Part shown: in pieces, positions 5,696 through 25,181 of the stretch | Position numbering within the stretch: the stretch's first letter is position 1 | Layout of the letters: each line of letters starts with the position of its first letter | Assembly (NCBI GenBank): GCA_000002435.2 | Contig: CM018793.1 | DNA: 64,000 nucleotides | Reading direction: 5' to 3' (one strand) | DNA from: Giardia intestinalis | Lineage: Eukaryota | Translations under genes and position numbers: made by a program | The notes under the pieces: generated by a model | What the model was told of the DNA's origin: nothing | The model's database searches: none | What the model saw: the letters and a program-made list of their open reading frames with translations, nothing else

Positions 5696-6653
5696 GTAGA
5701 GGGTGCAAGTACGAATTTTCTCCTCTCCATGCTTTGTCTCTGTAGCGTTTGGAAAGCGATCAGTATGTATTTGTTGGTAGATAGATTGGCTAAGTAAGTA
5801 TTCCTTTATAACAAGCTTGAATCATGTATCGATACGTGTCAAATTACGATATCAATTACCCCTAGGAGAGGCGCCCGCCGCCCTCTGCCGTCTGCCCCGT
5901 GGGCCTCTCGAGTGCCCGCGAGGCGATCCGGCTAGCGTGTCCGCGCCCCTTACGTAGGCAGGGATTCTCGCCGTCTCTGTCCCGCCGCCCTGGGCACCAG
6001 CACAGGGTCGCTTGCTGCGCCATCGTTGGTGCCTCTCCCGTGCCGAGCCAGGAGCACTGCAACCGCTGCAGCCTCTGTGTCAGGGCGGCCCGCACTGTTT
6101 TGTGGGTCCTCCTATGAGGTGCAAGCCGCGTGGGTGCCCTGATCGAGGTCGGCTAGCTGATCGGAAGCCTGAAGCCGGAATGACAGGCGCTCACAGTCTT
6201 CGACAGCTTTTGGTTCTGCTACTAGGGACAGATACCCACGATGACTATGCCCCCATCAGTTCGAATACAGTTGGCTGCGTTGTGGCCACGTCGTCAGCGT
6301 GTATCGGCTGGGCCCCTCAGAAGCTAAGAGTCTCGTCCAGAGCCCTTTCATCTCTATTTTGTTTCCAGTACTACTCCTGGAAGTCTACTAGCCCTTTGTC
6401 ATGGTTAATGTGCAATGTTTCTAAGCTCTCAAGTCGTGGGACAGCCCGAGCACTCCTTGCCTTTCCCACTTCCTAGCAGGTTCACAAGCTGAGTTAGAGA
6501 CGGCCGATTCTCCTGGCCCACAACTAATAGACGCTGTACTAGCTCTACTCAGCTGCGCCTTCGGCTCTGTTTAGGCCAAGCTCCCAGTTCCCTGGAGGGA
6601 CACCCTCATTCCCCATATCTTTAATAAAGGCTAGAGCATTCATAGCCATACGT

Positions 6654-7336
6654 TCATGTAAAATATAACGCATGCTCCAAATACTCGAGGTGGTTATGCC
6701 CTTTCCTACTCCATGCCCCCGGGACTGTATGCATTAGCATGACTTCAAAATATGCTCTGTTGAGCCTATCTTTTGGAGCACAGAAAACTAAAAGAACGGA
6801 GCCATGTTTTCGCCATGATCGAACTCGGTTACGACTAGATATACTGTACTGCGACAGAGGAAAGCTCTCCATTAGAGTGTCTTTTCTCAGACACGTGAAA
6901 TGCGCCATCAGAGCCGAAATCCGACGAACCATCTCGAGGGCTTTGGCCTCTTGGATGGCCATTCTCCACTGTCTGAAGAACCTTATTGCGTCTTTAAGAG
7001 CAGACTTATAACATTGCATGCACAGGCAAAAGGTTCTTTGTTGTGCAATACCTGTTTGTATTCAAAGGGATGTAAAGGCTTGAAGAGCTGCATAGTACAC
7101 AGGTCGGCCTCAGTGGCGTCCGGAATAATCCCCTTCAATTAGATACCCCTACCTACCTCGTCCAATGTGTCTTTCAATGCATAAACAGTTCTATACAATC
7201 CTTTGCCAATCACTATAGCCAGCTTAATCATCGGATCATCACTCGTTTCAGTTTTCTCAGACATTTTTAGTTGATACTCGATGAGCTGACCTAATTGGTA
7301 GTGCCAAAGGTAGCATGAAGTTTGTCTGCTTTGCAT
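6654..7336 (-). pseudogene. Possible decayed gene. Two minus-strand ORFs (65 aa and 121 aa) are separated by an in-frame TAA and a +1 frameshift.
   Basis: Reading the minus strand by hand through 7141-7020 gives ...DEVGRGI*LKGIIPDATEADLCTMQLFKPLHPFEYKQVLHNKEPFA, and then the downstream ORF (MQCYKSALKD...) is in another frame. I could not assign a family. It sits inside the gene-poor block. Confidence 0.2.
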
Positions 7337-10300
7337 ATGGAAGGATCTGTTATATCCTTACAGAATTTGGCAGTGCAATGTATAATTACCAACAAGGATC
7401 TGTAAAGCAAATAGTCACAAGTTTTGAAGGATTTAGCAAGACTAAAAGTCACTCTCAGACCTCAACTTGAGTATAAGTGATGATCCTATCGAGAACTAAA
7501 GGTCCATAAACGTAACGGAACAGGCGAATAGTCCGATAATTATTTCTTCTTGAAACGACAGATTTTTTCATGCTTCTAAGTGATTAAACTAAAGACAAAT
7601 TCTAGGCTAAATAAGAGCCCCGGAATCCCTTGAAGCATAAGCTATCCTATTACTGGGTTATTATAGAATCTAACTAACTCTAGTACTGTGGAATGGCAAC
7701 CAGGTTTAAAGTAAGGGAAGATCTATGTGCTTACAGACTTTAGGCCCACGGGATAGGGGTAGCAAATCATATATTTGAAGCTAATTGTTTGCCATCTTAT
7801 CTTCTAGCTGATTCACAGTAATGTGTATCCTTCGCACCGCAAATGGTTTCTAGTATCAAGAAAATGCATAGCAACTCTACCGGGCTACAGCTAAAATAAA
7901 GCAAGAAGCAAAGTCCACGGATATATGCCCAACTATACATAGTTATCATAATTGGCTAGGGCCTCGCGGATTACACAGTGCCTTTGCGATGTGCAAGATA
8001 ACATCGTATAGTAATGTGCACTCATCCATAAAGTAGCACGCATTATTTGTACATATTGATGTAGCAGGGCCTGGTATCTCCAATTATCCGGATAGCTTTC
8101 TAACTCGACTAGTAATAAGTTGCAATATCTTTATTCTTCGCCAAATGGCCAGCATTTTCTGAGGGTCTAGACCAGGAATAGTGAAGTCAGCATTCAATTG
8201 AGTACTTGTACACTGCACATAGGGTGGGTTGGTCTCTACGCATCCAAAGTTTGTAGCGGAAACTCATTGCGTAACTATCTAAGAATCCTATGCAAAATCG
8301 ATAGCTCTTAACGCAGATAGGCTATCTTTTCAAATCTACAAATCGCTAAGATCCCCTTTCTAAAATCTTCGACATCACAGACCCCATGCCAGGCAGCAAA
8401 CCTTGTGCTACATAATATGAGAGCCTCTAGGATGTGTAAACACCTGTGCGGCTACAGCGACGTATCTCCATTCACAGGTGCCAGTAGAACCGATGGACAC
8501 TGGTGAAGCATATCGGTGGGTGGAAGATGTAGTGAGTCAGGCATTCTGTATACTGTCATTCACCACAGCTCCCGTAGTGAGCCATGGGGAGCCTGAAGAC
8601 TGGTGCTCTATGGCGGCGTGAGTGTGGGTGGTGAGCCTAGAGCAGTCGCCGAATCGATGGTTTCGGGACAGCTTCTGTCATGAAGGATAATAGAACAGTG
8701 CAGCGAAGAACAGGTAACCCAAGTATCAAGAGATACACCTATAATGGCAACCAAGAGAAGTGCTATACATAGTTAGTGACCAATTCCCTTAGACAGGAAG
8801 CGGCAGATTATATGGCAGAAGAGAAGTGTTGTTACTGTCGGCCGATCAAGCATTCTAAGACATCGAAGCTGTGACGATGCATCTACCAGTGAGCTCCATC
8901 GTGCATTCTGAATGGCACGTTGCCCAACTAAGCTAGGGAAGTTCAGGAGATGACTACGCCCTTCTGTCATCGTATGTGCCCTTTGTGAACACATGTTTGA
9001 CCCAGCATCCTCTGGCACTCAGAGTAAACCCAAGTGCAAGCAGGGTCAGGCTCATTGAGGCACACCTGCTACGAGTAGCCCCTAGTGTTGGCCAGTCACA
9101 CCTGAGAGCGTATCTGTCTAGGAGAGCTCTATGTAGGGCGAGGAAGACCATCCTTCGCTGGTTGGCCGTGACTTGGAGCTCAGAACAGACAGGAAACTGA
9201 AGTGGTGGCTGGGCTATTGCTCCGCATCGTCTGTGCAGCCATGGCCAGGTCAGCCAGAAGGATGCCTCGATGTGCACATGATTGGCTTGTGTCTGAATAC
9301 TAAAAAAACTTGAGGCAGCCACCGCGCCCGCCACCCCCAGGACAGAGCTTCTGCACGTATGGCTAGCTCCCCTTGTCAGTTCAGTCTATTGGTCCAATAG
9401 TCTGGGAACCCTCTGCCCCGCTCTCTGGCGTACGATGTATCGCAACTGCTCATAGGGGTAAGCAGCATGAAAGAGGAATTGCATGTGTAGACAGCGTGTT
9501 ATGCCCGTCTCAGAGGACCGAGGTGTCTAACTACAGAGCGCTGCACCGAGCCATGCGCCCCACTGCCTTGCACTGGGGGCTGCCTCCACCACTGCACTTG
9601 CTACAACGGAGCTGTGTTGGCCCAGCAGATTAAGTAGATACTGCATCGACCCTATTTGACGATGTGTACACATCGCGTGATGTCCAATGGTGGAGCGGAC
9701 ACCGTGTGCCAAGGTGTCTGCTATTAACGAAAAACAGCACTTGGTTGCACCAGAGATGCTTCTGTGTAAGCATGGGGTCTTCACACCTGTCCCCTATCAG
9801 CTATAGTGCCAGCTGTATATCCAGAAAGGTCCTGCAGAGCACTCCACCGTCTTTCAAGGTGAGACATGGGCTCCACACCTATAGCTAGAAACAGAACTCT
9901 GTACACCAACTGTTGTGACCCTCGTGTGGTAACTGGCCTGTATCATAATCAACTTACTAAACATCTATACACTTGTCTGGATGCCCGTTGCTGGTTTTAG
10001 ACGGACCTGCGAAAAGGTTTGCCTTTGTCCGCATGACCTAGTGGTATCTAGTCTTGGTGACAGGCTTCAAGGAAGGAGGATGTTATTTGGGTACACAGAA
10101 GGCTACTCGTGTACAAAGATTCTCGGGAAGCAAATTTAGACAAAGAAGATGGAGAAAGCCAGGGAGCCCACTCTGTAATAGGATGACTAGGTATAGACCC
10201 ATTTACAATAGGGAAGCACGTGAGTCATTCTGGCTTCTAAACATGGAAAGATCGTGGAGTCTGCGGACGACTTGGAGGCTGATTTGATTTTGTGCATTTG

Positions 10301-12098
10301 TAGCGAGGCAGAGGCTTTTGAAGACCCACCTGTTCCGAAGTCGAGGGAGCTCGTTTCCTCTCCGTACGTGGCGCAAGACCCTATTGTAGAGGTATACGGT
10401 GCACACCAATATCAGTCAGCGTGTTTGCTACTCAGCAGTTCCTCAGTTGCGTCTTTCCGCAGTAGACGAGCCACCGGATGAGGCTCCCACAATCCACACG
10501 ATTAGCTTTATAGTGCTCTGTAGATGGCCATCCACCCTCACCAGGGGATGACTACATGCATTACGCAGTTTGAGGTACTTGGCAACCAAGGTGGCATAGT
10601 TAGCTCTTGCCCACTCAAGCTAGACCTCAACCACCTTGCCAACTACATTCCAAGTCACGGTGTTTATAGATGTCCACCTCAAGTCTGCAAGGTGCATCCC
10701 ACGACTGCACAGCGCGGATAGAACCCTTTACCTGCTATAAGAGGCGCCAACCAGTTTGCTGCATCTGGATATCCCTTGTGCGCCCAACGGAGACTTAATG
10801 GATCACATTGCTGTGCACACCAGCCTCTCTGCTCGCGAGCTGCTTTAAGGCTCTCTCATTGTCTCGCCTCCACATGGTTGTCAGACTACCAAGCACTTTG
10901 TAACGTCAGCTGATCACCCGAGATATCAAGCTTTCGTACAGCGGGTTGCTCAATGTGACACGAAATCTAGAGGGCACTGACTTTCTTAGCTTGCTGTCCA
11001 TATAGCACTATCATCAATCTTCAGTCCAGTTGACCAGCACACAGTCCGTTCTCTGGCCAGCCAACCGGGCCTAGTCTTGCTGGTAGACTTTCGAGCATAA
11101 GAGTATCCCCTGACAGCGGTGGCCACGCTGTGTGCCTTGCCCAAATGATCACTCTCGGCAATGGCTCCAGGACCTGGGCACCCCAGACCAGAGGGACGAC
11201 AACGGCCCAGTTCGTCTACGGCTCCACTATCCCTTAGTTAGCATGGAGTGTGGCAGCCCAGATAGCGCTGGCCGTCCGGTATCACCTTTTCTCCGGTGCG
11301 CGGGGGTAGCCCTCGTGTGAGAGGCGCTGTGATATGTTGGCTGGAGCCGGTCAGGCGAGCGGGACCACCGCTCTAGAAGTGCTGGCACATCATTGCGTGT
11401 CCGAAGGCGTGCCCACCTCAGTGGGACCATCCCAGATGAGGACGAACGGGTACCGGTTCCTTCAGAGGGGCCTGCGACCAGCGAGGGACAGTCTTTAAAG
11501 ACGATCGGCCGGCAGAACCTGCTTCAGTGGCATAGGAGTCGACAGGGGGCAGGCTTATCGACGGTCTGCGGTGCAACCAGGTTAAGTCGTATGACAGACG
11601 GACATCCATCCGTTCGCGGTGGGCATGTTGCGTGTCCCTAAGCAGAGGGGGCAGTCGTAGTGAGTCGCGATAGAACACGCAGCCATCCTCCACGGGGCAT
11701 CGCTCCTGCCGGGCCTCAATGTAGGACCTCGACAAGCAGTGTCTGAGGCATCTGCTTGTGATGACCCGTGGCTCGGGCTGCTGGGGATCGCACGGCCGGC
11801 TCCATCGGGTCGCTGGTCAGACATCCAGGAGAGCCTAGGAGTCCCTTGGCAGACCTTGTGACTGGCACAGCAGGAGAACTGGTCGCCAGGAGACCCTCAC
11901 ATCACAGCGAAGAGCGAGGCAGACCACTGTCTAGCAGTTACCATGCGATGCGCCTTGCAACACAGAGGAGGGGCCTGCACTGATCGATCCATCTCACAGC
12001 CAGCCAGTCACATGAAAGTCGAATCAGCACGACCCCACCTCTCAGTGCAGACCCATGCGGAGGGCCTTCCTTGCCAGTGCGTCATGTAGCACAGACAG

Positions 12099-13943
12099 AT
12101 GCCACGAAGGGGCGGACTAGTGAACAGAGCTGTCATGGCCTGTGTGACAGACGCTGGCACAATGTTCTACGCAGTTTTGCTGATCGGCCTCATGCTCGAG
12201 ATGGCACGGGCAGCGCAAGCCGGAGACGAATGCGAAGAGGTAACTGGCAGCGAACCCAACACTTGCAAGGCCTGTAGCGCCGTCATCAACGGCAAGAAGT
12301 ACTGCTCGCAGTGCAACAGCGGTGGGTCTCAATCTGCCCCGACGGACGGCAAGTGCACAACAGACAACAACGAATGTAGCCAAAAACAAGATGGGAAGTG
12401 TACACAGTGCGCTAATAAATCCTTCATGTACAAGGGCGGATGCTACAAGGATAGCCAGGCACCTGGCAACACGATGTGTGAAACAGCAACTGATGGAGTG
12501 TGCACGCAGGCTAAGGCTGGGTACTTCCTACCACCCGATGCTGATAGAGATAATGCACACCAATCGGTCATACCATGTGGAGATGACACAGTAGTAACGC
12601 TTGGAAATAGCAAACAGTACAAGGGCGTACCGCACTGCACTCAGTGTGAGAAGCCCACAGAGGCAAGTGATACTACTACTGCCAAGGCTGCGACGTGCAC
12701 GGCTTGTGAGGACGGGTTCTTTGGGGCTACTTGTGAAGCATGCCAAGACGAGAATTGCGCTACGTGTGCCATGACAGGCAATAACAAGTGCAGTAAGTGT
12801 AAAGGAACTGGTACTAAGACATATCTGAAAGTGGACAGTGGCAGCACAGGCACGTGCGTCGAAGCATCTGGATGTACAGCGGCTACGTTTCCAAAGGTCG
12901 ATGAACAACAGGGAAACAAGTGCGCTGCATGTAATAGTGTGCCAGATGGTGGAATCGCTAATTGTGCGACGTGCAGTCTGCTCACTCAAGGATCTAGAGC
13001 CGCCCCTTTGGTCACATGCTTGACGTGTGAACAAAATAAGTATCTCACTCCAGAAAAGAATGCGTGCTTAGATACCTGCCCTGCTGGAATGTATGCCGTT
13101 AGTGGCGATAGCGGCAATGTTTGTACCCCCTGCCACGAGTCGTGCGCAAGCTGTAGCAATGACGCAGCAACGTCGTGCACGGCCTGCTATCCGGGGCATG
13201 TGCTGAGTCGGTCGTCTGGTGACGCAGGAACGTGCATAAAAGAGTGCACGGGAGACTTTATGGCCCACTGCAAGGCCGACGGCTGCTCACTGAACGTCGG
13301 AGGCTCGAAGTACTGCGATCAGTGCGAGGAGGGGTACGCCCCAGTCGACGGCGTCTGCACATCCATACCTGCAACAGCGAGAGATGCCTCCGGATGTAAG
13401 GCAAGTGGCGGGAAATGCACTGAGTGTGGGGCAAACTACGCTCTGTTATCGGGCGGATGCTACAACACACAGAAGCTTCCTGGTAGCTCTGTGTGTACGG
13501 CTGCACAGAATAAGGGACAATGCCAAACGTGTGCCAATGGACAAAGCCCAGCTGGAGGAAAATGTCCGGCGTGTACTGAAGGATGTGTGAAGTGTGCGGG
13601 TAGTAAGGAAACCTGCACAGATTGCTTAGCAGGGTATTACAAAGGTGCCGGTGATAAATGCTTCAAATGCACGGATAGTGATAAGGCTAGCTCTAATGCA
13701 ATAACTGGTGTAGAAAACTGCATAAGCTGTGCCCCGCCAGCTGGTGGCAATGGCCCTGTCACCTGTTACGTAACGCAACAAAAGGCTGACGATGGCACCG
13801 GCGGAGATACTGGAGGAGACAGCACGAACAAGAGCGGCCTCTCCACGGGCGCCATCGCGGGGATCTCCGTCGCTGTGGTCGCTGTCGTGGGGGGCCTCGT
13901 GGGCTTCCTCTGCTGGTGGTTCCTCTGCCGGGGGAAGGCGTGA
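12099..13943 (+). CDS. VSP: Variant-specific surface protein (VSP), 614 aa as printed
   Basis: The ectodomain is dense in CXXC motifs. There is a GGCY motif, a C-terminal TM, and the invariant tail [16 protein letters not shown]. The stop codon is directly followed by ACTTAGGTAGTGAA. The hydrophobic signal peptide begins at the third in-frame Met ([20 protein letters not shown], nt 12162), so the real start may be 12162. Confidence 0.9.
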
Positions 13944-13959
13944 CTTAGGTAGTGAATGC
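13943..13959 (+). promoter_or_regulatory. Conserved VSP 3' element / extended poly(A) signal (ACTTAGGTAGTGAATGC; AGTGAA core)
   Basis: It lies immediately after the TGA of VSP1. The same motif follows both of the other VSP-type 3' ends in this window. AGTRAA is the known Giardia polyadenylation signal. Confidence 0.7.
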
Positions 13960-13974
13960 TGTACAGTGATAGTG

Positions 13975-14214
13975 ATAGTGCTATGTGGTGTGACATGCTC
14001 TGTGGGTGACTGCAAGAGCTGTGTGATGGATGATGTGTGTGGGGAGTGCAGCGATGGGTTCAGCATAGAGGGTGGCAGGTGTGTGTCTTCTGGCACCAAC
14101 AGGAGCGGGCTCAGCGCGGATGCCATCGCGGGGATCTCTGTGGCTGTCGTCGTCGTCGTCGGAGGGCTTGTCGGCTTCCTCTGCTGGTGGTTCGTGTGCA
14201 GAGGAAAAGCGTAG
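13975..14214 (+). pseudogene. Truncated VSP. Only the C-terminal ~80 codons remain: last CXXC motifs, TM, CRGKA.
   Basis: It translates to ...[76 protein letters not shown]. It starts only 30 bp after the VSP1 stop. It has no signal peptide or N-terminal domain. The Met at 13792 in the ORF track lies inside VSP1 in another frame. The relic is followed by ACTTAGGTAGTAAAT. Confidence 0.7.
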
Positions 14215-14760
14215 ATGTACTTAGGTAGTAAATACGTCACTGTATAAGCCTATCACTCCTGTTTCCAGGGCCTCGCCTGTAGGTGCATTCAAGGATCTCA
14301 CGGGCAATTCTTATTCAATTTCTGGCCGTCCGGAGATGAGGGTTGGTTTTGGATAACATAACGAGAGAGTCCTCTCCAGTGATATATCCAGAGCCTAGCG
14401 CCTTCCCCGGTCGCTCCGCAGGGGTGTGCTCAGACCGAATGCGTACTTCGGTCCTTTCGGGGTTCAGGCCTTCTTACGGACTCTCTGGTCCACCAATGGC
14501 GCCTCTTCTTGGTCTTCCTTCGTGGCGGGTGAAGCTCCGGTCGCTGTCTTTTTTAGATGCCCCGTCTGTCGGGGGCTGCCATCGGGCTCTCCGCTGGCTG
14601 GGCCCCTCGGTGTCCGTCCGGCTGTGTCCCGGGCAGCGCTCTACAGTCGCGGTCACGTAGGTCCCAGTGGGCCGGCTGGTGGGTGGGGCGGGGGTATGGG
14701 GCGGTGAGGCTGGAGGGGCTCTGGTGGGACCAGGTGGTGGGTGTTCGTATGTGCCCCTGA
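14095..14760 (+). repeat. Inverted-repeat arm A (VSP 3' coding end plus ~550 bp of downstream flank)
   Basis: Its reverse complement matches 16375-17060. Identical translated strings appear in opposite-strand ORFs on the two arms: QSRSRRSQWAGWWVGRGYGAVRLEGLWWDQVVGVRMCP, YEHPPPGPTRAPPASPPHTPAPPTSRPTGTYVTATV and FPGRSAGVCS. I also checked a nucleotide alignment by eye. It is about 80-90% identical, with one indel block of about 60 bp. Confidence 0.8.
14219..14236 (+). promoter_or_regulatory. VSP 3' element / poly(A) signal (ACTTAGGTAGTAAATACG)
   Basis: It comes directly after the TAG of the truncated VSP. Confidence 0.6.
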
Positions 14761-16374
14761 GCTCCTGATGAGTGGGGTGATCGCAGCTGTGGTGACTGGG
14801 GGCTGTCCATCTGTGACTCACCCCTCTGTGTGCTCGTGGTCTGTGAGTGCCTCCACCCAGACAACGCCTCAGGAGCCGTGCACACCGGGACAGAGAGGAT
14901 GACCAAGGGGGTCAAGCAGCCCCGCTACGAGAGATGAGAGTGCACAGCAACCAGCCTGATCTGCAGGGCTGCTCGAGCGATGTAGTGGTAGACGGCTCCC
15001 TCTGACAGCGACCCTGGTGACTGCACTGGCCTGCTCTCGAGGCTGAGTGACAGTGTGCACAGATGGACCTGAGTGCAGGAGGACCATCCACACACGAACA
15101 GACTGTGTAGACCCAGAGAGGACTGGAGTCTGCTCGGGACACGCTGACTGTGCCCCCATACGAGAGCACCAGGCAACCACCCGAGCACCCGAGAGGCAAC
15201 AACAGACACGGGCACCAGAGATCCCCAACCAGATACATTGCTACGCTCATCCACAGGGGCATCAGAGGACCAGGTGGGGTCACCCTCACAGTCAGGGCCT
15301 GATAGGAAGCCAGAGGACTCACGCAGCACAGTAGGTCCAAGGGAGGCACACTCCAGGCAGGTGAGCAGTGGCAGAGCCCTGACAGCTGCCAGCCCCCATG
15401 ACACCCAGGCAGGCACCAGACTCACCGAAGACTCCGCTGGCCTCGACTGTCTTCATTGATGACCCGAGGGGGCAGCAGCCAGAGGAGTGAGGAGGCCTTC
15501 GGACGCCACAAGAGGCCCGGCTGTCCAGCAGGCTACGAGGCAGACAGGTGACCTCTGAGCACCACCCAGGCACAGAGCCGACCATCAGAGTGATGCCCGA
15601 TCACAGAGATGATCACGAGCACCCTCCACTGCACTCTGAGGGGCTGTCAATCATCCCAGCTGCCTCTCATAGCAGACCTCCTTGGGGGCAGTGCAGTGGG
15701 TCCCAGCTCATGCAGGAGGGTGCACGCCCCTCGGCATAGGATGCCCCGGCTCTCCCCGAGGGGTCATCAGAGCCACGAGAGGTGTTAAGGTTAGTAGACC
15801 ACACCGGGAACTCCCGAGGGCACAGCAGGTGATGTTGGGTGATCCTCAGCGTGCTCCTCTCTGATGGTAGAGCATCCTGAGACCAAGGAGGCTCACCTCT
15901 GCCTACGGACGACACACAGCGCTCCACAACGAGGACCCACCAGGAGCAGCACAGCTGGTCACGGGGATAGTGCAGCCACCCGGTGCCCCACCATGCCAGT
16001 CTTCTGGGCCATCACACTAGAGGCACGAGAGAATCCATCCCATCCACAGGCTCATCCACACCCCTGCTGGCCCGAGGTGAACTACCGTCGAGGCACTGGA
16101 CAGGGCATGCCAGGGGCTCAGCAGATCCACACAGAGCATCAGCACAGAGCATCAGCGAGTAGCAGGAGAGGCTGCGATGGCCTGCCTCAACCCTCACGCA
16201 CCAGCCAGACAGAGAGGCAGTACTGCCCGAGACAAGGGGCCAAGGGAGGCGCTCAGTCAGGGGGACACGACACGATCGTCGGTGCCTGTGTCTTGGAGTG
16301 CAACGAAGGCTGGGGATCAGACACAACCACCTTAGCAAACAGAGCGGGGATCACCCACCACCCCACTGGCCCAC

Positions 16375-17060
16375 TAGACCCAGGGACACATACGAACACC
16401 CACCACCTGGTCCCACCAGAGCCCCTCCAGCCTCACCGCCCCATACCCCCGCCCCACCCACCAGCCGGCCCACTGGGACCTACGTGACCGCGACTGTGGG
16501 ACCACTGCCCAGAACCACAGCCGGACGGACACCGAGGGGCCCAGCCAGCGGAGAGCCCGGTGGCAGCCCCTGACAGACGGGGCATCTAAAAAGGACAGCG
16601 ACCCGGGCTTCACCCACCGTGAAGGAAGACCAAGGAGAGGCGCCACTGGTGGACGATGTACATGGTGAGTAAGCGGAATCCCAGGCCGACTGAGCAAGCA
16701 TTCCCGGGTGTGCACACTCAGCTGAGCACACCCCTGCGGAGCGACCAGGGAAGGTGCCAGGTTTTAGATATACTAAAAGAGAGGAGCTCCTCGTTATATC
16801 ATCCACAACCAACCTTTGTCTCCGGACACGGCCAAAGGAGCGAGAATTTATTCGTGAGATTTCTGGATCGTACCTACAAGCACCCGGTAGCACATCCATA
16901 TAAGCTACATAAAGTAACGCGTTTACTACCTAAGTCTACGCCTTCCCCCTGCAGAGGAACCACCAGCAGAGGAAGCCCACGAGACCCCCCACAACGACGA
17001 TGACTGCGACGGAGATCCCCGCGATGGCGCCAGTGGAGAGCCCGCTCTTGTTCGTGCTAC
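16375..17060 (-). repeat. Inverted-repeat arm B (3' end of VSP2 plus downstream flank)
   Basis: This is the partner of arm A. See that entry. Confidence 0.8.
16921..16935 (-). promoter_or_regulatory. VSP 3' element / poly(A) signal (ACTTAGGTAGTAAAC on the minus strand)
   Basis: It is the reverse complement of gtttactacctaagt, and it lies immediately 3' of the VSP2 stop. Confidence 0.7.
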
Positions 17061-18168
17061 CACCGGCACTGTCACCGTTCATGAGGTAGCAGAGAACGGA
17101 GCCAGTACTAGACGATGGAGGAGCGCAGCTCATGCAGCCAGCAACTCCCTTGACACTTCCACTGTTGCTGTCACACGAAGTGCATGGTCCAGCTGCTGAT
17201 CCGACCATATAGTACCCAGCTGCGCATGACGTACACTGGTCAGAGCTATCTGCAGCTGAACATGTATTACAGGTTGAATGACACGAGGGGCATGCTCCAT
17301 CATTGGGCCGAAGACTATTAGCACATGTTTCGCACTTACCCCTGCTATCAGCTAATGTGCATATCTGTTTGCCTGGCTGCTTGGTAGTTTCATAGCAGCC
17401 GCCTTCCTTGAGGAAGTAGTTAGCGGCGCATTTGGTACATGCTCCATTATTCATTTCAGTACAGAAAGCTACTCGTGCGTTACTTGTTGTACAGACCCCG
17501 TTCAGAGGAGCCTGATTATCCACTGAGCACTGGGAGCAGTAGTCTGTCCCGCCGATCCTTGCCCCACAGACCTTACATCCGTTCTTGTCCGCCGTACACG
17601 CATCCCCGCAGGTGCCCCCTTGCACAGGATCACTACTTTTGTATATTAATGCCTTGCCAGCAGGACAAGCACTACACTGATTGTTGGCTGGCCCAACGCA
17701 CTCAGCGCACTCAGGGCTGCATGCCTTACACTTCCTGTCAGTATCTCCATAGTATCCGCTGATGGTCGTGCAGTCAGGTATGCACTGGTTTGTTGGAGTG
17801 AGATAATTGTTGTCATTACATTCAGTGCAGACCTCTCTGTCAGTCTTCGGGTTATCACAGGCCTTGCAGTTGGGAGTATTGCAGGCCCCTGCCTTCGGAA
17901 CACACGTGAGCCCGTCCTCTGACGGCTGGTACGTCTCCGTGCACGTGCAGATTCCTCCTGCCTCGTTTGCGTTATCGGGGCACTTCGCTATGCAGCCCTT
18001 TCCGTTCGGCTGGACCTTCTGTCCGACCGTCGCACAGCCCGTGCATGTCTGCTCGCCCCCAGGAGGCGTTGCGCACGTGCTACAGCCGGGTATCGGTGGG
18101 TCACAGGCCGTTTTCGGGCCGATTCCTGCTAGAACCGTTGTGCACACTAAAAGAATTACTGCCAACAT
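16936..18168 (-). CDS. VSP: Variant-specific surface protein (VSP), 410 aa
   Basis: The N-terminal signal peptide is MLAVILLVCTTVLAG. The ectodomain is CXXC-rich, followed by a TM and the tail [12 protein letters not shown]. The ATG at 18168 was verified. The upstream region is AT-rich. Confidence 0.9.
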   Translation of the reverse strand: MLAVILLVCTTVLAGIGPKTACDPPIPGCSTCATPPGGEQTCTGCATVGQKVQPNGKGCIAKCPDNANEAGGICTCTETYQPSEDGLTCVPKAGACNTPNCKACDNPKTDREVCTECNDNNYLTPTNQCIPDCTTISGYYGDTDRKCKACSPECAECVGPANNQCSACPAGKALIYKSSDPVQGGTCGDACTADKNGCKVCGARIGGTDYCSQCSVDNQAPLNGVCTTSNARVAFCTEMNNGACTKCAANYFLKEGGCYETTKQPGKQICTLADSRGKCETCANSLRPNDGACPSCHSTCNTCSAADSSDQCTSCAAGYYMVGSAAGPCTSCDSNSGSVKGVAGCMSCAPPSSSTGSVLCYLMNGDSAGGSTNKSGLSTGAIAGISVAVIVVVGGLVGFLCWWFLCRGKA

Positions 18169-18439
18169 TAAGTTTAAGCTTACGCTCGATTATTATTCTC
18201 TTCAATTAAGCTTATAATTAATCCATAAGTTATAGACAAACCACTGTTACCTTTTGATAAATCAATTAGAATGGAAAAGAATAAAATCAAGAGCACACCT
18301 ACCAGAGGCCGGCTGATAGTGCGGTTCTCCCTGGCTTCAATAGAAACAGGATGAGTGAGGGCTAGACTCAGATCGTGCGTCCCTGCGGAAACTAATAATT
18401 GTTCAGAGATGCATTCCTATACATTGCTGTCAGTATGTT

Positions 18440-18486
18440 TGTCGACTTTTTTGCAGAGGCAAGGTGTAGATTTAGGTAGTAAATGC
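18440..18486 (+). pseudogene. Orphan VSP tail relic (…FCRGKV-stop followed by ATTTAGGTAGTAAATGC)
   Basis: The sequence ttt tgc aga ggc aag gtg tag translates to FCRGKV*, and the conserved VSP 3' motif follows it. There is no VSP body upstream. It lies about 270 bp beyond the 5' end of VSP2, on the opposite strand. Confidence 0.5.
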
Positions 18487-19634
18487 GTTAACTGATATGT
18501 GCAGATCCCTCTGTGCCCAGCTCGGGCTCCTCAGTAGCATACCTGGATCTGATGGATAGAGAAGCACACCTACTATAAGCATCTCTTGCTGATGGCCTGT
18601 AACCACCTTTTACAGTCCAGTGTGCATCCTCTAGTGCTCCACTTCCCCCTGTGGCCAGTGTATCTCTAGGGCGAAGCAGACTCTTTTGAAAAGGTATTGA
18701 CCTAGCACCATGAAGGAGCGCGGGGCACTGCACTGGGCCCGTACACAGGTCAGAGGCCCGTAGTTGTAGGTCAGCAAGATCCCGGTGCGACGGTCGGGTG
18801 CTCGTCCATCAGAGCTCTCAGGATGGTGGCCAGGGGGCAGGAGCGACGCCTTTCTTGTCGGTCGCGACGCTGGTCAGTTGTCGATGCAAAATGTGCAAGG
18901 CCCCACAGGCGAGGAGCACAGAAGGGCACAGGGAGCGTAAGGCCACCAGCAACTCGTAACTTTTTATATCTTGGTGGCCGGTCTCAGCACTTCGTAGGTG
19001 CAGATATGAGAAGCTGGGCCGAGTGATCTGCTGGTGGAGGGGCCGACACACACTTCTCTAAGGGTTCTGCCATGGGTGACGACGATGGTAGGCCGCACCA
19101 CTGCAGGACCGACGCACGCCAGAAATAGATGAAAGGCTCGCAAGCAGGTGCAGACTGGAGCGCCAGCCGCTGGCCGGATCACCCGCACAGGCACGCTCTG
19201 GTTACTTCAATAGATGGTTCAGTGGCACCTTAACGGAAAACACTGCTGCGCTCCACTTGCTGGCCATTTGAGGCACGCAGGTTCGATTGGTCCCAGGGCC
19301 ACCGCTAAGCGTGGCATGACAGGCTATCTCCCAACATCGGGCGGCGGTAAGACTCACGCCTACTTTTAGCCAACTGAGCTCGAAGCAATCCATGCCCTTG
19401 CGGGTCCATACTGGCGTGGTCTGTACAGCTATGCGCAGTGATGCATAACAGACCTCGGAACCGTAGACACCCTGGGCGCGCCCCTTGCTGCGCAGGGCCA
19501 GGGACGCCGGGCGTTTTTAGGCTGTCTACCTGGATAGGGTTGTATTCTGGAATGAATAGTAAAATGAAACGCGCTCCAGCGTTCATGCTTAATCGAAGCA
19601 TAATACATCACTCCAATAAATTGAATGCAAGATC

Positions 19635-22600
19635 ATGAGGTTACACTTGTTTCATCTTTCTACATGGCACTACGTCCTTACCGTTGAATATCAAGGTGTA
19701 TGGGACTCACTGCCTGGTACGATGCATCTTTGTACAGTTTTGCAGAGGGACACGGTCATTACACAACAAGGTTCAGTAGGTGCTCCCGCCTTCACATTTG
19801 CCACCGTCTACACTGAACGAAGCGTTGCTCTAGTTGTCTCCAGATTGTCTGTAGTTTACTATGACAAGGCACTCTCTAAGTACATCAGTGATCTCGATAT
19901 AACTGCTTTAGATATTCTCGCCCTGATGCTAACCAGTAATGATGATTATGAGCGTGTAGCATTAGAAAGTTACAAGCAGATAAAACTAAAACGATACCGC
20001 TATGCCGGACCTGTTCTGCAAAACGAATATTCCACTATAGTGTTGCACAATATCATTCATGCTCAAAAGTCAATATCGTATCTTCTTAATAGGCAACTGC
20101 TTCCAGTCTCTTTGGCAACTGACATATTCAAGATATTAAAAAGTGTTGAGGCCTCTAGAATCCGCGATAGACTTAAAAGCGATTTCCAGAAGACATCACA
20201 AATACTACTGCGTCTATCCAGCTATTTTAGTGATATGGAGTTACTGTTAATTAGTCATGAGCCCTATTCTTCTCGTCTCTCAGATAAGGATGCTTCATTT
20301 ATAATAAGGACAACAAACCCTTATTTCTCCATTGTTCACGTTCCTAGAGGGCTCGCTCAGATTGCTACGCCAACACCTGCACAACTCACATCACTATTGA
20401 ACGCCTTTTCTCCCTCTGAACAGGCTAAGATTGTTATGGAATCCGGATGTACATTATCTGTTCAGATTTTGTCTAATAGCACTGCTGATGCCCTCAATCA
20501 AGAATATCCCCACACACTTGCATATCTTATGCGGCACTATTTTTTTCTTCCAACACTCGTCCCCTTACTCCTCCCGTTTTATAATATCAACAGGATATTC
20601 CCCGTGCTGACAGATCCACACCTCTCTTACCTACATTCGCAATCACCTGATTCTGTTGATGCTACTATCTTCTCTGATGAACCAGCAACCTGTACATCGC
20701 CCCTCTCATTAAAGCCTTCAATATATATCGAACTGGCGAGGCGCTACGATCTTCGCAGTCCAAATGACAAGTCAGTATGGCTGACACTAGAAGTTTCTCA
20801 GCCCCTTTCTCGGGTAGGGTACATGTATGCTCCTTATGTGATTCTCTCTACTGCGTTCTCGACCCATACACTGCACCCAGATGATTGTAAGATAATCTTT
20901 GACAGGGTGAAAACGTTCGAAGAGCAGCAAACGCTGTATTTTTGTCAGGGCCGCCTAGCAACTGAGATATCCTCTTCAGGAGTCGTTCTTAGCGATATTG
21001 GTATGTTAAAGCACACTGTTCTCAATCCTATCAATAAATCCATGGCTTCAAGTGACATGGGTGCGTATAGTTTGGCGGACGCCGTGGTTCCCATATTCAA
21101 CCAGTCTCCGGTTGATGGATCGGCGTCTGCCGGGTACTTTAGTCGCGAGGAGTTCTCAGAGGTGCTGTCCCTGTTTTCCAACAAAGTGAGTGCATTAGAG
21201 CAACAGCTAGCTGTTATCCATGCTGTATATGAAGACCTTTACCTGGCTATTACAGCCGGTCCTCCTGCACATCTCACAAATGATTCTAATATCTTCTACT
21301 GCTTGTCATGCGAAGACAGCTGGAGAGCATACCGGCTTGACTGCTTTAAATATTGGCAGGGCGTTGCACCGTGTATAGATAACGGAGCGGCAAAGGCTTT
21401 GGATAGTTGCAGAGTGCTGTTAGAAACCGACACAGAGCTTTGCTCTTATCATCCAGCGAAGGCCTTGTCTGATAAGCCTGTCCAACTATCTAAAAAGGAC
21501 CTGAGGCAATACACTGCTACTCAAGTCAATCCTTTGCCTCTTTGTAGTCTCATGAAGCGACCCATCCTTATTGATAAGAGATGGGCTCTGCAGCAACAAG
21601 TGATTCTATACGTTTCCGGAATGGAAAAGCGCTTTGCGTTATCAACAGGCCAGATCTATTTCTCTATTCGACTTCACTATCCCCAGCTGAATCTCTATAT
21701 TATTAGGATAGAAACGGCACGAATACTTACATGTGGGCAGTTTATTGCCGCTCTTGTGCTTATAGAGGATATCAATCTCAGTCTTAGCGACTATTTGAAC
21801 TATCTGTCTGATTCCATTGTATTTACGCATGCACCACCGGCTTCTACCCTTCCATCAACCAGCGTCTATCATTGTTTGTTTACTTTTAGCTTGGATGGGG
21901 CCTTCATTGGAATCCAGCCTTTGCTGCTGGGAGGACTGGGTCGTTATTATCGATCGGACGATGCTGATGCTTTTACCGTTCGTACTCTGGGCATTCCTAC
22001 AAGGAGTCAAACAAAGCCTGCCTCTAAGGTGGCCACGGCTTCATTTGATAGCACTTTTCCAGTGTATACAGGGCCTCTGGTAGCATCTCTATATACACGC
22101 ATATTAAGTGACGTTGCAAGCCTTGCTGTCTCTGTCTCTTCTAGCGTTTATATTTGCCTTCATAATTTGCATTTAGTTTTACATCTAGACGTCCTAACAG
22201 GAGAAAAGACGTTGATGGGATGTATGCAATCTCTCGTCCATCCGTACAGCACTCGATTTGTGGTATCTTCAAGTGCTTCATTGCCAATCTTTATGGACAT
22301 GAAGCTGCAGTCCATATTGCTCCCAGCATCTGCATCGAGCCTAGTGGGAGAGTTGCTTTCTGACTATACTGACACAGAGGTTGTTGACATTCTCCAGAAG
22401 GATCATACTATTGACACAGGGCCAGCAGCTTCCATTGCCACATATGCATTAGAGGAGTCAGACGAGATTCGGACTCCAGGCTACTGCACAGATACATCTG
22501 AAGGCGAAGTCGATAGTAAAAGGAAGGGCTCTCCTACAAATCCCCAGACTAAGCTCGACATGCGGTTTTCTCTCTTACTGAGTGACAACGGTAGACAGTT

Positions 22601-23171
22601 CCTTAGGCCACGTCTATTCAAGCCAAACAGATTGTCCATTACTTACTATTCCAAAAAGCATGGTGTTTCTTTAATCTTTGACGACACTATCATGCACTTT
22701 CCACACTATCCGGTAGCAATTTCTCGTTTCCATCTTAAAGATACACACCTGATTGCCGTCATTGGCCAGGGCAGAAATAAAAATTACTGGGGAGTTACAT
22801 TTACCGAGTGTACCTTTGGAGGCTCGTGTTCCCTTGTGCGACAAATGGTAGTTGACTTGGGGGTTCCGTATATCTGCGAATCTCACCCCGTCCTCAACAC
22901 CACCACCTCCCAAGCTCCACCTTCGTCCACTGGCAAAATTAGTACAGCATCCATATCGTGCACCGGAGATTCTCTAATATTTACTGTCCCTACAAAGTCT
23001 TTAATGCCAGGAAATTCCGGACAGATGATCCCTGCGACTAGGCTCGTTGAAGTAGGATTTTACACGGAGCTCCGACAGGTAGCTGAGATTGCTGGTGTCT
23101 ATCGCACGCACACACCATTTAGGATTGTCAATTATCAGATACGACCTGTTGAGGGCTGCTTAGGAACATAG
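19635..23171 (+). CDS. Hypothetical protein (1178 aa)
   Basis: It is a long uninterrupted ORF with a verified ATG. I recognised no domain. Confidence 0.8.
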   Translation: MRLHLFHLSTWHYVLTVEYQGVWDSLPGTMHLCTVLQRDTVITQQGSVGAPAFTFATVYTERSVALVVSRLSVVYYDKALSKYISDLDITALDILALMLTSNDDYERVALESYKQIKLKRYRYAGPVLQNEYSTIVLHNIIHAQKSISYLLNRQLLPVSLATDIFKILKSVEASRIRDRLKSDFQKTSQILLRLSSYFSDMELLLISHEPYSSRLSDKDASFIIRTTNPYFSIVHVPRGLAQIATPTPAQLTSLLNAFSPSEQAKIVMESGCTLSVQILSNSTADALNQEYPHTLAYLMRHYFFLPTLVPLLLPFYNINRIFPVLTDPHLSYLHSQSPDSVDATIFSDEPATCTSPLSLKPSIYIELARRYDLRSPNDKSVWLTLEVSQPLSRVGYMYAPYVILSTAFSTHTLHPDDCKIIFDRVKTFEEQQTLYFCQGRLATEISSSGVVLSDIGMLKHTVLNPINKSMASSDMGAYSLADAVVPIFNQSPVDGSASAGYFSREEFSEVLSLFSNKVSALEQQLAVIHAVYEDLYLAITAGPPAHLTNDSNIFYCLSCEDSWRAYRLDCFKYWQGVAPCIDNGAAKALDSCRVLLETDTELCSYHPAKALSDKPVQLSKKDLRQYTATQVNPLPLCSLMKRPILIDKRWALQQQVILYVSGMEKRFALSTGQIYFSIRLHYPQLNLYIIRIETARILTCGQFIAALVLIEDINLSLSDYLNYLSDSIVFTHAPPASTLPSTSVYHCLFTFSLDGAFIGIQPLLLGGLGRYYRSDDADAFTVRTLGIPTRSQTKPASKVATASFDSTFPVYTGPLVASLYTRILSDVASLAVSVSSSVYICLHNLHLVLHLDVLTGEKTLMGCMQSLVHPYSTRFVVSSSASLPIFMDMKLQSILLPASASSLVGELLSDYTDTEVVDILQKDHTIDTGPAASIATYALEESDEIRTPGYCTDTSEGEVDSKRKGSPTNPQTKLDMRFSLLLSDNGRQFLRPRLFKPNRLSITYYSKKHGVSLIFDDTIMHFPHYPVAISRFHLKDTHLIAVIGQGRNKNYWGVTFTECTFGGSCSLVRQMVVDLGVPYICESHPVLNTTTSQAPPSSTGKISTASISCTGDSLIFTVPTKSLMPGNSGQMIPATRLVEVGFYTELRQVAEIAGVYRTHTPFRIVNYQIRPVEGCLGT

Positions 23172-25181
23172 TGGACACATAATCTGCAACAGGTCGGGCA
23201 AAGGAGCCCCGCACCGGATGCACGTATTGGACAAGCTATTCCCATCATCAGTGTCGGGTCCCCCCGCAGTTTCAAGACGATCTTCCTCCTTTCGCTTCAG
23301 AAATCTGCCGAAGATCTTTTTTGTAAGCATCACAAATGAGGACGTTCGTTCTTTTGTAGAATTTGTTGTGGTAACTTCTGAGGTGGTTTCTTGGTCTACG
23401 TGGGGACTTTGTGCTACTGTCTCTGGGAGTGGAGCCTCAGTACCGCTTAATTGCCGCATTAGCGTCATCAGAAGGGACTGAATATCGTCATTCGTTCTAG
23501 TGGGATCATCACTCAATGCAATAGCATCAGTGATAAAATCTAAAAGAGAGCTGGTGAACTGAAGGTGCGACCCTATTTGGCGTTGAAGGGCAGTGATAAG
23601 TGGAGCTGACTCCTGATGTCTGTCTCGCAATTCCGTGAGGATGCGCGTAAGTTCTGTGGTTGTCTTTAAGTGGTGACTTATTCCAGCTCTGAATTTCTGA
23701 TGGAGTAGGAGCGTGTTACCTACTGGAGCATATGCTGCTGGGTCTTGGCCAGGCATATATCTAGAAAAGATGTTACTATTAAGAGTGGATGATCTAAGAG
23801 GTCTCCGAGCGGATATACTAGGAGATTGGTTAGAGTCATTGCTATCTGTGCTAAATCTGTCCGACTTTATTCGTTTATGCCGTGACGGATTAGTTTCACC
23901 TATAGTGTAAAACAGGTCACTCATGCTTACATCGTCAGGATGCACAGATGCGCTTTTTGCTCTATTGGTCCGCCGATACAGGATTGAACCTTGGGCAGGA
24001 GACGCTGGTATAAAGTAAGTAGCGTCTGGAGTATAAGTGAACTTTTCAGTGGAACCGATGTCGTGTACACTTGCGCGTTTTGATGCGGGCGCGCTGCTAA
24101 ACTGCAATGACGAAGAGAGCAGAGCCAGCGCGTCTTCCACAGGCTTAGAAATATTCCCACCCTCAAGGGGCTCTAGATAATCTGCAATATGCTGATAGCC
24201 AAGCTCGTATGCAATTGCGTGGGCTGTCATGCCCCTGTTATCTCTAATGCTAGCCTCATATCGAGCAAGCTCCTTTACGCCATCAAAGTAATCTTCTCTG
24301 GCAGCCAGCATAGTAGCAGTCTGACCGTTCTTATTTTGCAAGCGAGCCTCTTGATCTATTAGTAATCTGATCACCGGAACACGACGATGGATCACAGCAC
24401 TCATAAGAGCTGTTGCTCCATTTTCTGCTTGCAGTCCACCCTCTTCCGCTTTGAGCAAATCTACCAAATCGGCATTACCATTGTTCGCAGCCATCATCAG
24501 TGCAGTTAGCCCATGTCTGCACTGCATCCCCGCTTCTTTTAGGGCAAGAATACGCGCAGAAATGCGTTTGTTGCAGATGACAGCCATCATAAGCGCAGTC
24601 ACCCCTTTGTTGGTTGTCATCCGTGATTCACGCTCTAGAAGTATCCTAATAATCTTGAAGTAGTCACGTTCAGCAGCTAGCATCAGCGCTGTAAATCCTA
24701 CCGCATCTTGCATACCTGCCTCGTGGTCAGAAAGTAGCTGCGCGCCCTCAGTGTGATTCCGCCTGGTAGCTATCATAAGCGCCGTTGTTCCATTAAGTGT
24801 CTGCTTCCGAGCTTCATAAGGCGCAAGAATTCTCATAGCATCAAGCTGCCTATTCTCTGCAGCAAACATAAGCGCAGTTCGACCGTGATGGTCTGCGTGG
24901 CCAGCCTCAAACCTGGAAAGATGCTGGACAGCGCGCACGTTTCCCATGGCTGCAGCAAACATCAAGGCGGTGATTCCGTGACTTGTTTCCGCGCCGTGAT
25001 GTTCTGCAGTATGGGTTTCTAGAGCAGCCAGGTCGTTCTTTGCCGCTGCAATCATCAAAGGAGTAACTTCTGTCGAAGTTAAGGGAGGCTCCATATCAAA
25101 AAACAAGTGTGCCAGATTACTGTGGGACATATCCAGATCGCTATCTAGATCGTGGAGGGTCTCAGCATTCCGCCCGTCCAT
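23160..25181 (-). CDS. Ankyrin-repeat protein (Giardia 'protein 21.1' type) with a C-terminal CxxC...CxxC zinc-ribbon-like end
   Basis: There are about 12 tandem ankyrin units (G.TALM.AA..G, Giardia-style). The C-terminus reads CIRCGAPLPDLLQIMCPLCS. ATG verified. Confidence 0.85.
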   Translation of the reverse strand: MDGRNAETLHDLDSDLDMSHSNLAHLFFDMEPPLTSTEVTPLMIAAAKNDLAALETHTAEHHGAETSHGITALMFAAAMGNVRAVQHLSRFEAGHADHHGRTALMFAAENRQLDAMRILAPYEARKQTLNGTTALMIATRRNHTEGAQLLSDHEAGMQDAVGFTALMLAAERDYFKIIRILLERESRMTTNKGVTALMMAVICNKRISARILALKEAGMQCRHGLTALMMAANNGNADLVDLLKAEEGGLQAENGATALMSAVIHRRVPVIRLLIDQEARLQNKNGQTATMLAAREDYFDGVKELARYEASIRDNRGMTAHAIAYELGYQHIADYLEPLEGGNISKPVEDALALLSSSLQFSSAPASKRASVHDIGSTEKFTYTPDATYFIPASPAQGSILYRRTNRAKSASVHPDDVSMSDLFYTIGETNPSRHKRIKSDRFSTDSNDSNQSPSISARRPLRSSTLNSNIFSRYMPGQDPAAYAPVGNTLLLHQKFRAGISHHLKTTTELTRILTELRDRHQESAPLITALQRQIGSHLQFTSSLLDFITDAIALSDDPTRTNDDIQSLLMTLMRQLSGTEAPLPETVAQSPHVDQETTSEVTTTNSTKERTSSFVMLTKKIFGRFLKRKEEDRLETAGGPDTDDGNSLSNTCIRCGAPLPDLLQIMCPLCS

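Follow-up and report, generated by a model that had tools for sequence, protein, structure and literature searches.

Introduction

Giardia intestinalis carries about 136–300 genes for variant-specific surface proteins (VSPs), the count depending on the study, and it is debated how it builds and reshuffles these genes and expresses one of them at a time. We examined a stretch of 64 kb (the window) of chromosome 5 of G. intestinalis WB (NC_051860.1). There, two VSP genes, VSP1 and VSP2, face each other 3′ to 3′ around an inverted repeat that contains VSP coding ends. A first reading of the sequence (the original prediction) had proposed two meanings for this arrangement, a source of self-pairing RNA for VSP silencing and a substrate for recombination.

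Our analysis indicates that the locus likely belongs to the Giardia tail-to-tail VSP “inverted pairs”, as a decayed member with a mosaic structure. We read the inverted repeat as a trace of the duplication and recombination of VSP genes and not as an established device for silencing. On this reading, the locus both results from the recombination that generates the VSP repertoire and serves as a substrate for it; we ascribe no regulatory role to the locus.

Results and discussion

Organization of the tail-to-tail VSP pair

VSP1 (GL50803_0050101, 593 aa) occupies positions 12162–13943 of the plus strand and matches XP_001708801.2/KAE8305472.1 exactly; its open reading frame (ORF) is open from 12099 (12099–13943), the annotated start being 12162. 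VSP2 (GL50803_0050102, 410 aa) occupies positions 16936–18168 of the minus strand and is identical to XP_001703891.2/KAE8305473.1. The genes display the characteristic features of the family, namely a CXXC-rich ectodomain, a transmembrane helix, a terminal CRGKA followed directly by the stop codon, and the motif GACTTAGGTAGTRAAYGCKK 3′ of the stop, and PF03302 is found on their matches. The predicted tail-to-tail arrangement is confirmed, with VSP1 ending at 13943 and VSP2 at 16936, 2992 nt apart.

VSP1 and VSP2 are alike in the tail only, and beyond it the two ORFs are unrelated. Specifically, the VSP1 tail (13821–13959) is 90.7% identical to the VSP2 tail over 140 nt, and the match ends right after the polyadenylation signal. 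Directly downstream of VSP1 sits a third VSP tail, a promoterless 264-nt pseudogene fragment at 13951–14214 (+), annotated as GL50803_0040022/0040023, which comprises the last ~75 codons, including the transmembrane segment and the CRGKA stop, and has its own poly(A) signal. A fourth tail, an inverted remnant with CRGKV, a stop and a poly(A) signal, is located at 18452–18490 (+), upstream of the 5′ end of VSP2.

Each tail is followed within 1–7 nt by a VSP extended poly(A) signal. The element ACTTAGGTAGT(A/G)AA, which corresponds to the published VSP-specific extended polyadenylation signal GACTTAGGTAGTRAAYGCKK, stands 3′ of the stops at 13943, 14219 and 16935 (−), and a degenerate copy follows the fourth tail at 18470. 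The original prediction had placed this stop-adjacent element on both arms of the repeat, and the copies at 14219 (+) and 16935 (−) agree with it. In the Giardia literature, 323 of 327 genomic matches to GACTTAGGTAGTRAAYGCKK adjoin VSPs or VSP pseudogenes, and VSP transcripts are reported to be cleaved 16–38 nt past the stop. The individual signals are GACTTAGGTAGTGAATGCTG for VSP1 (13942–13961, +), TACTTAGGTAGTAAATACGT for the pseudogene fragment (14218–14237, +) and GACTTAGGTAGTAAACGCGT for VSP2 (16917–16936, −); GL50803_0050101 is listed with the motif in Table S6 of Rodriguez-Walker et al. 2022 (bioRxiv 10.1101/2022.03.07.483299).

A mosaic inverted repeat

A sensitive self-comparison of the window reveals an inverted repeat between 14093–14759 and 16381–17057, with 79.4% identity over 694 columns, including 44 gap columns (E 1e-161), which refines the limits first proposed (14095–14760 and 16375–17060). 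It is the sole long repeat in the window. The left arm (14093–14759, +) is composed of 122 nt of VSP tail and a 545-nt flank, while the right arm (16381–17057, −) is composed of a 555-nt flank and the last 122 nt of VSP2, in agreement with the ~550 bp of downstream sequence that had been predicted for both arms. The prediction that the arms include the VSP 3′ ends holds for the right arm, which contains the VSP2 tail, but not for the left arm, the outer end of which is the final 122 nt of the pseudogene fragment and not VSP1; the flank of the repeat does not follow VSP1. Measured from stop to stop, the two repeat-borne tails are 2721 nt apart.

The arms had been described as about 80–90% identical with one indel block, whereas they prove to be a mosaic ranging from 66 to 99%. 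From the outside inward, identity is 81% in the coding tail (pseudogene fragment versus VSP2), 73% in the poly(A) signal, 66% in the outer flank (with 50 gap columns), 89% in the middle and 99% in the innermost 117 nt, which include a 111-nt perfect run. The inner boundary is abrupt, at 14760/16380. As judged from sequence comparison, this pattern fits gene conversion or segment replacement. The layout is reminiscent of the palindromes of the human Y chromosome, in which inverted arms likewise surround a unique spacer and high identity, here confined to part of the arms, suggests conversion. The VSP locus differs in being much smaller and in its patchy identity, down to 66%, and conversion would here be read from the pattern of identity.

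Between the arms lies a unique spacer of 1621 nt (14760–16380), with 62% G+C and a CpG observed/expected ratio of 0.39. Its plus strand contains only 14% T from about 14850, and the T-poor plus strand continues unbroken from there through the right arm to the VSP2 stop, while the left arm has the mirror composition. This continuity suggests that the right arm and the spacer were one original stretch of DNA downstream of a VSP gene, and that the left arm is an inverted copy. As a whole, the segment of spacer and right arm (14760–16935) has a G+C content of 60–62%, higher than the about 47% of neighbouring genes, and a strong strand asymmetry.

Searches for recognizable content in the spacer gave no match. 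Pfam searches with eight arm and spacer ORFs and with P0001, a protein introduced below, yielded sub-threshold noise only, an Rfam search of 11–20 kb at E ≤ 1 yielded zero matches, and Tandem Repeats Finder reported only trivial short repeats; the spacer thus lacks a recognizable gene, RNA family or transposon domain. A chimeric protein query joining the longest arm and spacer ORFs retrieved one relative only, P0001 (UniParc UPI0001CA7288), a 396-aa spurious ORF that matches the minus strand from 15767 to 14744 over three frames. The match runs on across the junction of spacer and left arm, and P0001 is a divergent copy of the spacer, located elsewhere, that keeps this junction. Metagenome scans with a 22-nt inner-arm pattern, and then with P0001, found nothing, and k-mers of the flank were absent from the published supplementary tables, which hold gene and pseudogene sequences only.

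Relationship to known tail-to-tail VSP pairs

The dimensions of the locus match those of a class already described in WB. Adam et al. 2010 (BMC Genomics 11:424, PMC2996952) reported 14 identical inverted VSP pairs, and found identical VSPs only in inverted pairs. The class was defined by 2–4 kb of non-coding DNA between the ORFs and by a point of flank divergence 139–729 nt from the coding region. For nine identical tail-to-tail pairs, Table 5 of that work gives 2393–3222 nt between the ORFs and near-identical 3′ flanks that diverge abruptly 318–559 nt beyond the stop (486–559 nt in seven of the pairs). Here, the genes face each other 3′ to 3′ with 2992 or 2721 nt between them, depending on the tail that is counted, and the arms are alike up to an abrupt divergence at 545/555 nt. 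Subtracting the arms from the published distances leaves spacers of about 1.6–1.7 kb for most pairs, compared with 1621 nt here.

A second survey gives a similar picture. Table S4 of Rodriguez-Walker et al. 2022 draws 14 VSP pairs tail-to-tail (13 according to the text of the paper), with intergenic regions of 2,526–2,813 nt in 13 of the 14, described as “very similar” within groups; the region of GL50803_0014586/d14586 is said to closely resemble one that separates non-duplicated VSPs. Among the Table S6 entries covered, the TACTTAGGTAGTAAATACGT variant is listed at an equal offset for this same duplicated tail-to-tail pair, and the GACTTAGGTAGTAAACGCGT variant that follows VSP2 is listed for the 112208 and 115797 pairs, among others. 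The poly(A)-signal variants common to the 14586/d14586, 112208 and 115797 pairs provide a lead to, and not proof of, homology of the modules.

Compared with the inverted tail-to-tail pairs of WB, such as the vsp1267 locus, the present pair shares the genome, the 3′-to-3′ orientation of the VSPs, a distance of about 2.7 kb between tails, arms of about 550 nt and a spacer of about 1.6 kb. It differs in that the ORFs are unrelated beyond the tail, so that it belongs with the “other tail to tail” subclass and not with the identical-ORF subclass. In addition, its arms are 66–99% identical, versus nearly identical arms in the published pairs, and one of the partners consists of just a 264-nt fragment, in front of which a further VSP is stacked.

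The class itself is already described, while this specific pair was previously not flagged as tail-to-tail. A 140-aa ORF at 13792–14214 corresponds to vsp #30 (GL50803_115474) of Adam et al. 2010, who classified the sister VSP1-like gene 115742 together with this fragment ORF (115474) as an “overlapping linear array”.

For comparison we used four loci of isolate P15 (L007, L008, L010 and L011) and one of G. intestinalis isolate DH (L009), which together contain about 10 VSP tails. In DH L009 (AHGT01000035), positions 11480–11900 hold a tandem of a VSP tail, ~130 nt and a second VSP tail fragment that is 81.7% identical to 13821–14232 of the window; this tandem sits behind a VSP2-like gene, at an unrelated locus. 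P15 L011 (ACVC01000109, 1–8570) contains a tail-to-tail VSP pair, 3934 nt apart, with a weak internal inverted repeat (150 nt, 77%), in a cluster that also contains a fourth VSP and a neighbour placed head-to-head.

Inverted tails on either side of the VSP2 cassette

A second inverted repeat, of 39 nt and 87% identity, relates the remnant at 18452–18490 to the VSP2 tail (16915–16953). The remnant forms the outer end of a VSP2 cassette (16915–18490) that includes the 5′ upstream part of VSP2 (18169–18451, −), whose homology to P15 L007 and L008 extends as far as the inverted-tail junction. Beyond the remnant lies flank “A” (18491–19482, +), which is homologous to the downstream arm of a P15 VSP locus. 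VSP-like coding similarity extends upstream of the annotated VSP2 ATG, at 18177–18384 (−).

In P15 L007 (ACVC01000010), the closest relative of VSP2, with 78% amino-acid identity, adjoins the ortholog of the window gene at 19635–23171. Beside this same conserved gene, the P15 relative is oriented opposite to WB VSP2. The L007 gene (8534–12375) is enclosed by inverted repeats of 1190 nt and 99.9% identity, whose arms each comprise the last 54 nt of the VSP and its downstream flank, and the WB remnant at 18452–18490 followed by 18491–19509 is the counterpart of the right arm. A second P15 copy, in L008 (9641–11267), carries an inverted tail (82 nt, 92.7%) upstream of its 5′ region. The junction of inverted tail and 5′ upstream region is thereby common to WB, L007 and L008. 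To the left of the VSP2 cassette, WB and P15 are no longer syntenic.

Homology among WB, L007 and L008 starts and stops at the inverted tails, which indicates that the conserved tail is the point at which cassettes are joined to different flanks, and that one lineage has inverted the cassette; either WB or P15 could be the changed one. The proposal that the locus is a recombination substrate is accordingly supported, mainly through this neighbouring repeat with its inverted tails and opposite orientations, and less through the repeat to which the original prediction had pointed.

The VSP2 cassette resembles the invertible segments of bacterial phase variation in lying between inverted repeats and in occurring in both orientations (WB versus P15). 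It differs from such switches in that the VSP2 promoter region flips together with the gene, so that orientation should not switch expression, and in that the difference in orientation is one between lineages. To our knowledge, no recombinase acts at the cassette.

The locus adds little to the question of how one VSP is expressed at a time. It offers a worked evolutionary example, in which the conserved ~140-nt tail and its poly(A) signal serve as the breakpoint at which VSP cassettes become attached to different flanks. A cassette can have inverted tails on both sides, and one cassette is oppositely oriented in assemblages A and E.

Proposed origin of the inverted repeat

We infer the following series of events. 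A VSP tail with about 550 nt of downstream DNA would have been copied and inverted about 1.6 kb further downstream; alternatively, the entire arm–spacer–arm module may descend from an earlier one like it. The module would then have been reshaped by recombination and gene conversion acting at the conserved 3′ ends of VSP genes. The inner ~270 nt of the arms may have stayed, or become, homogenized (89–99%), while the outer flank and tail of one arm may have been replaced by a divergent relative (66–81%). The left partner gene would have been cut to a 264-nt 3′ fragment, with VSP1 placed head-to-tail in front.

Several points weigh against this account. The identity gradient of the arms could have other causes. 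Homology of flank and spacer to those of other WB modules is inferred from dimensions, from shared variants of the poly(A) signal and from P0001 as a single divergent copy. The rearrangements could have proceeded in more than one direction and order, and an added function, RNA-based or duplication-promoting, may be compatible with the data.

Among the alternatives, the one that fares best holds that the arm–spacer–arm unit is itself a propagating element, either the relic of a mobile element or a promoter of duplication, that carries or captures VSPs at both ends and homogenizes them. Such an element would be in keeping with the near-constant sizes of arms and spacer over the published tail-to-tail pairs, with intergenic regions that are very similar within groups, with the restriction of identical VSPs to inverted pairs (PMC2996952), and with P0001 as a divergent copy retaining the spacer/arm junction; transposon relics have also been reported near duplicated VSPs in the Giardia literature. 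On the other hand, neither the examined arm and spacer ORFs nor P0001 gave a transposase, reverse-transcriptase or other Pfam signal, and the arm and spacer ORF search returned a single relative. Long ORFs such as those of arms and spacer would arise by chance on a strand poor in A. Apart from the VSP tails, the unit has no terminal features, and a sensitive search found no terminal repeat between 8.8–12.2 kb and 13.9–19.7 kb. We consider a propagating element unlikely.

A broader proposal, that arm–spacer–arm is a conserved multi-copy functional element, would make it either a hairpin-RNA gene feeding Dicer and Argonaute or a recombination module that captures, duplicates, homogenizes and flips VSP cassettes. 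We assign a low probability to this proposal, and continue to prefer decay of an inverted pair through duplication and recombination.

Predicted folding of a possible read-through RNA

The original prediction had linked the repeat to RNA interference (RNAi). Read-through from VSP2 or VSP1, or convergent transcription, would yield RNA that folds on the arms, and Dicer would process it into small RNAs acting on the shared VSP 3′ region. In support of the first step, the arms of a 2965-nt read-through RNA (14093–17057), whichever strand is transcribed, are predicted to pair with each other, the minimum-energy fold containing 575–576 arm-to-arm pairs and pairing about 105 of the 122 VSP-coding positions. 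Overlapping transcripts have been found in 81% of tail-to-tail gene pairs with mapped 3′ UTRs (untranslated regions; PMC3610916), and alternative distal polyadenylation is seen in some VSPs (Giardia literature).

These points are opposed by the position of the poly(A) signals, 1–7 nt behind every tail, with cleavage reported at 16–38 nt after the stop; moreover, the VSP part of the left arm belongs to a promoterless fragment behind the VSP1 signal. The predicted duplex over VSP-coding sequence is only 81% matched, its longest perfect runs being 17 and 21 nt, while the 111-nt and 43-nt perfect runs consist of non-VSP sequence. Over the VSP sequence that would have to be silenced, the arms therefore do not offer a long duplex of near-perfect match. 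Giardia Dicer products measure about 25–27 nt, and the published RNAi model involves an RNA-dependent RNA polymerase acting on VSP mRNAs and not hairpin loci; we count both against the hairpin.

The locus resembles the hairpin-RNA (endogenous small interfering RNA) loci of animals and plants in having a long inverted repeat able to fold back if transcribed as one RNA. It differs in that the VSP part of the arms is too imperfectly matched, and in that a loop of 1.6 kb and poly(A) signals lying inside the transcript would be unfavourable. In the literature we found no report of small RNAs from tail-to-tail VSP loci. Taken together, a silencing function by this route appears improbable. If tail-to-tail modules were transcribed as hairpins, they would supply the RNAi model with a genomic source of double-stranded RNA.

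Family conservation, assembly and a probable second copy

The original prediction had itself named an objection by which the repeat would be mere family conservation and not a locus-specific structure, namely a flank of ~550 nt common to all VSP genes, in which case any tail-to-tail pair would show such a repeat. What every VSP tail examined does share is the last ~140 nt of coding sequence and a ~20-nt signal. The ~520-nt flank, by contrast, is absent from the about 10 VSP tails of the comparison loci (L007–L011), in which similarity to 13944–16935 ends ≤28 nt after the stop. In the window, similarity to the intergenic region likewise ends ≤28 nt after the stop at VSP1 and at the 18452 remnant; the flank is present on two of the four VSP tails there, and the window contains no further copy of flank or spacer. 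The sampled tails of P15 and DH and the two tails in the window contradict a universal VSP 3′ flank, which we reject, and pure family conservation is very improbable. The objection nevertheless holds in one half: the flank is not common to every VSP, but the architecture is a recurrent one, already described as a class in WB.

Misassembly of a repeat-rich region is hardly credible and was rejected: short-read assemblies do break at 9141 and 19417/19482, and older WB assemblies mixed the two VSP1-like copies, but a difference of about 20% between the arms, with many indels, is not something that an assembler would create, and a like structure is seen independently in P15 and described in two papers (PMC2996952; bioRxiv 10.1101/2022.03.07.483299).

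The same breaks bear on copy number. Chromosome 5 holds a second adjacent pair of VSP genes: GL50803_00115742 (KAE8305454) shares 95% identity with VSP1, the two being the same from about residue 70 on, and its neighbour GL50803_0050100 (KAE8305455) is 99% identical to VSP2 with extra N-terminal tandem repeats (775 aa versus 410 aa). The two entries of the pseudogene fragment, GL50803_0040022 and GL50803_0040023, have the same 264-nt sequence, both on chromosome 5 and both pseudogenes in the reference annotation. Where Logan short-read contigs of WB-like samples match the window, they do so at 100% identity, and they end at 9141 to the left and at 19417/19482 to the right. The second pair, the identical pseudogene entries and the contig stops together point to a repeated block of about 10.3 kb (9141–19482) that holds the whole structure, and the module is thus probably present twice on chromosome 5.

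Neighbouring regions

Upstream of VSP1, the region 5700–12100 comprises 6.4 kb in which there is no ORF of at least 250 aa, no VSP-like or repeat signal was found, and G+C rises to about 60% at 11.2–12 kb. On the other side of the VSP2 cassette, the conserved gene at 19635–23171 (+) and its convergent neighbour at 23160–25181 (−) overlap by 12 nt at their 3′ ends (23160–23171), and P15 is annotated alike (L007, 16062–16073).

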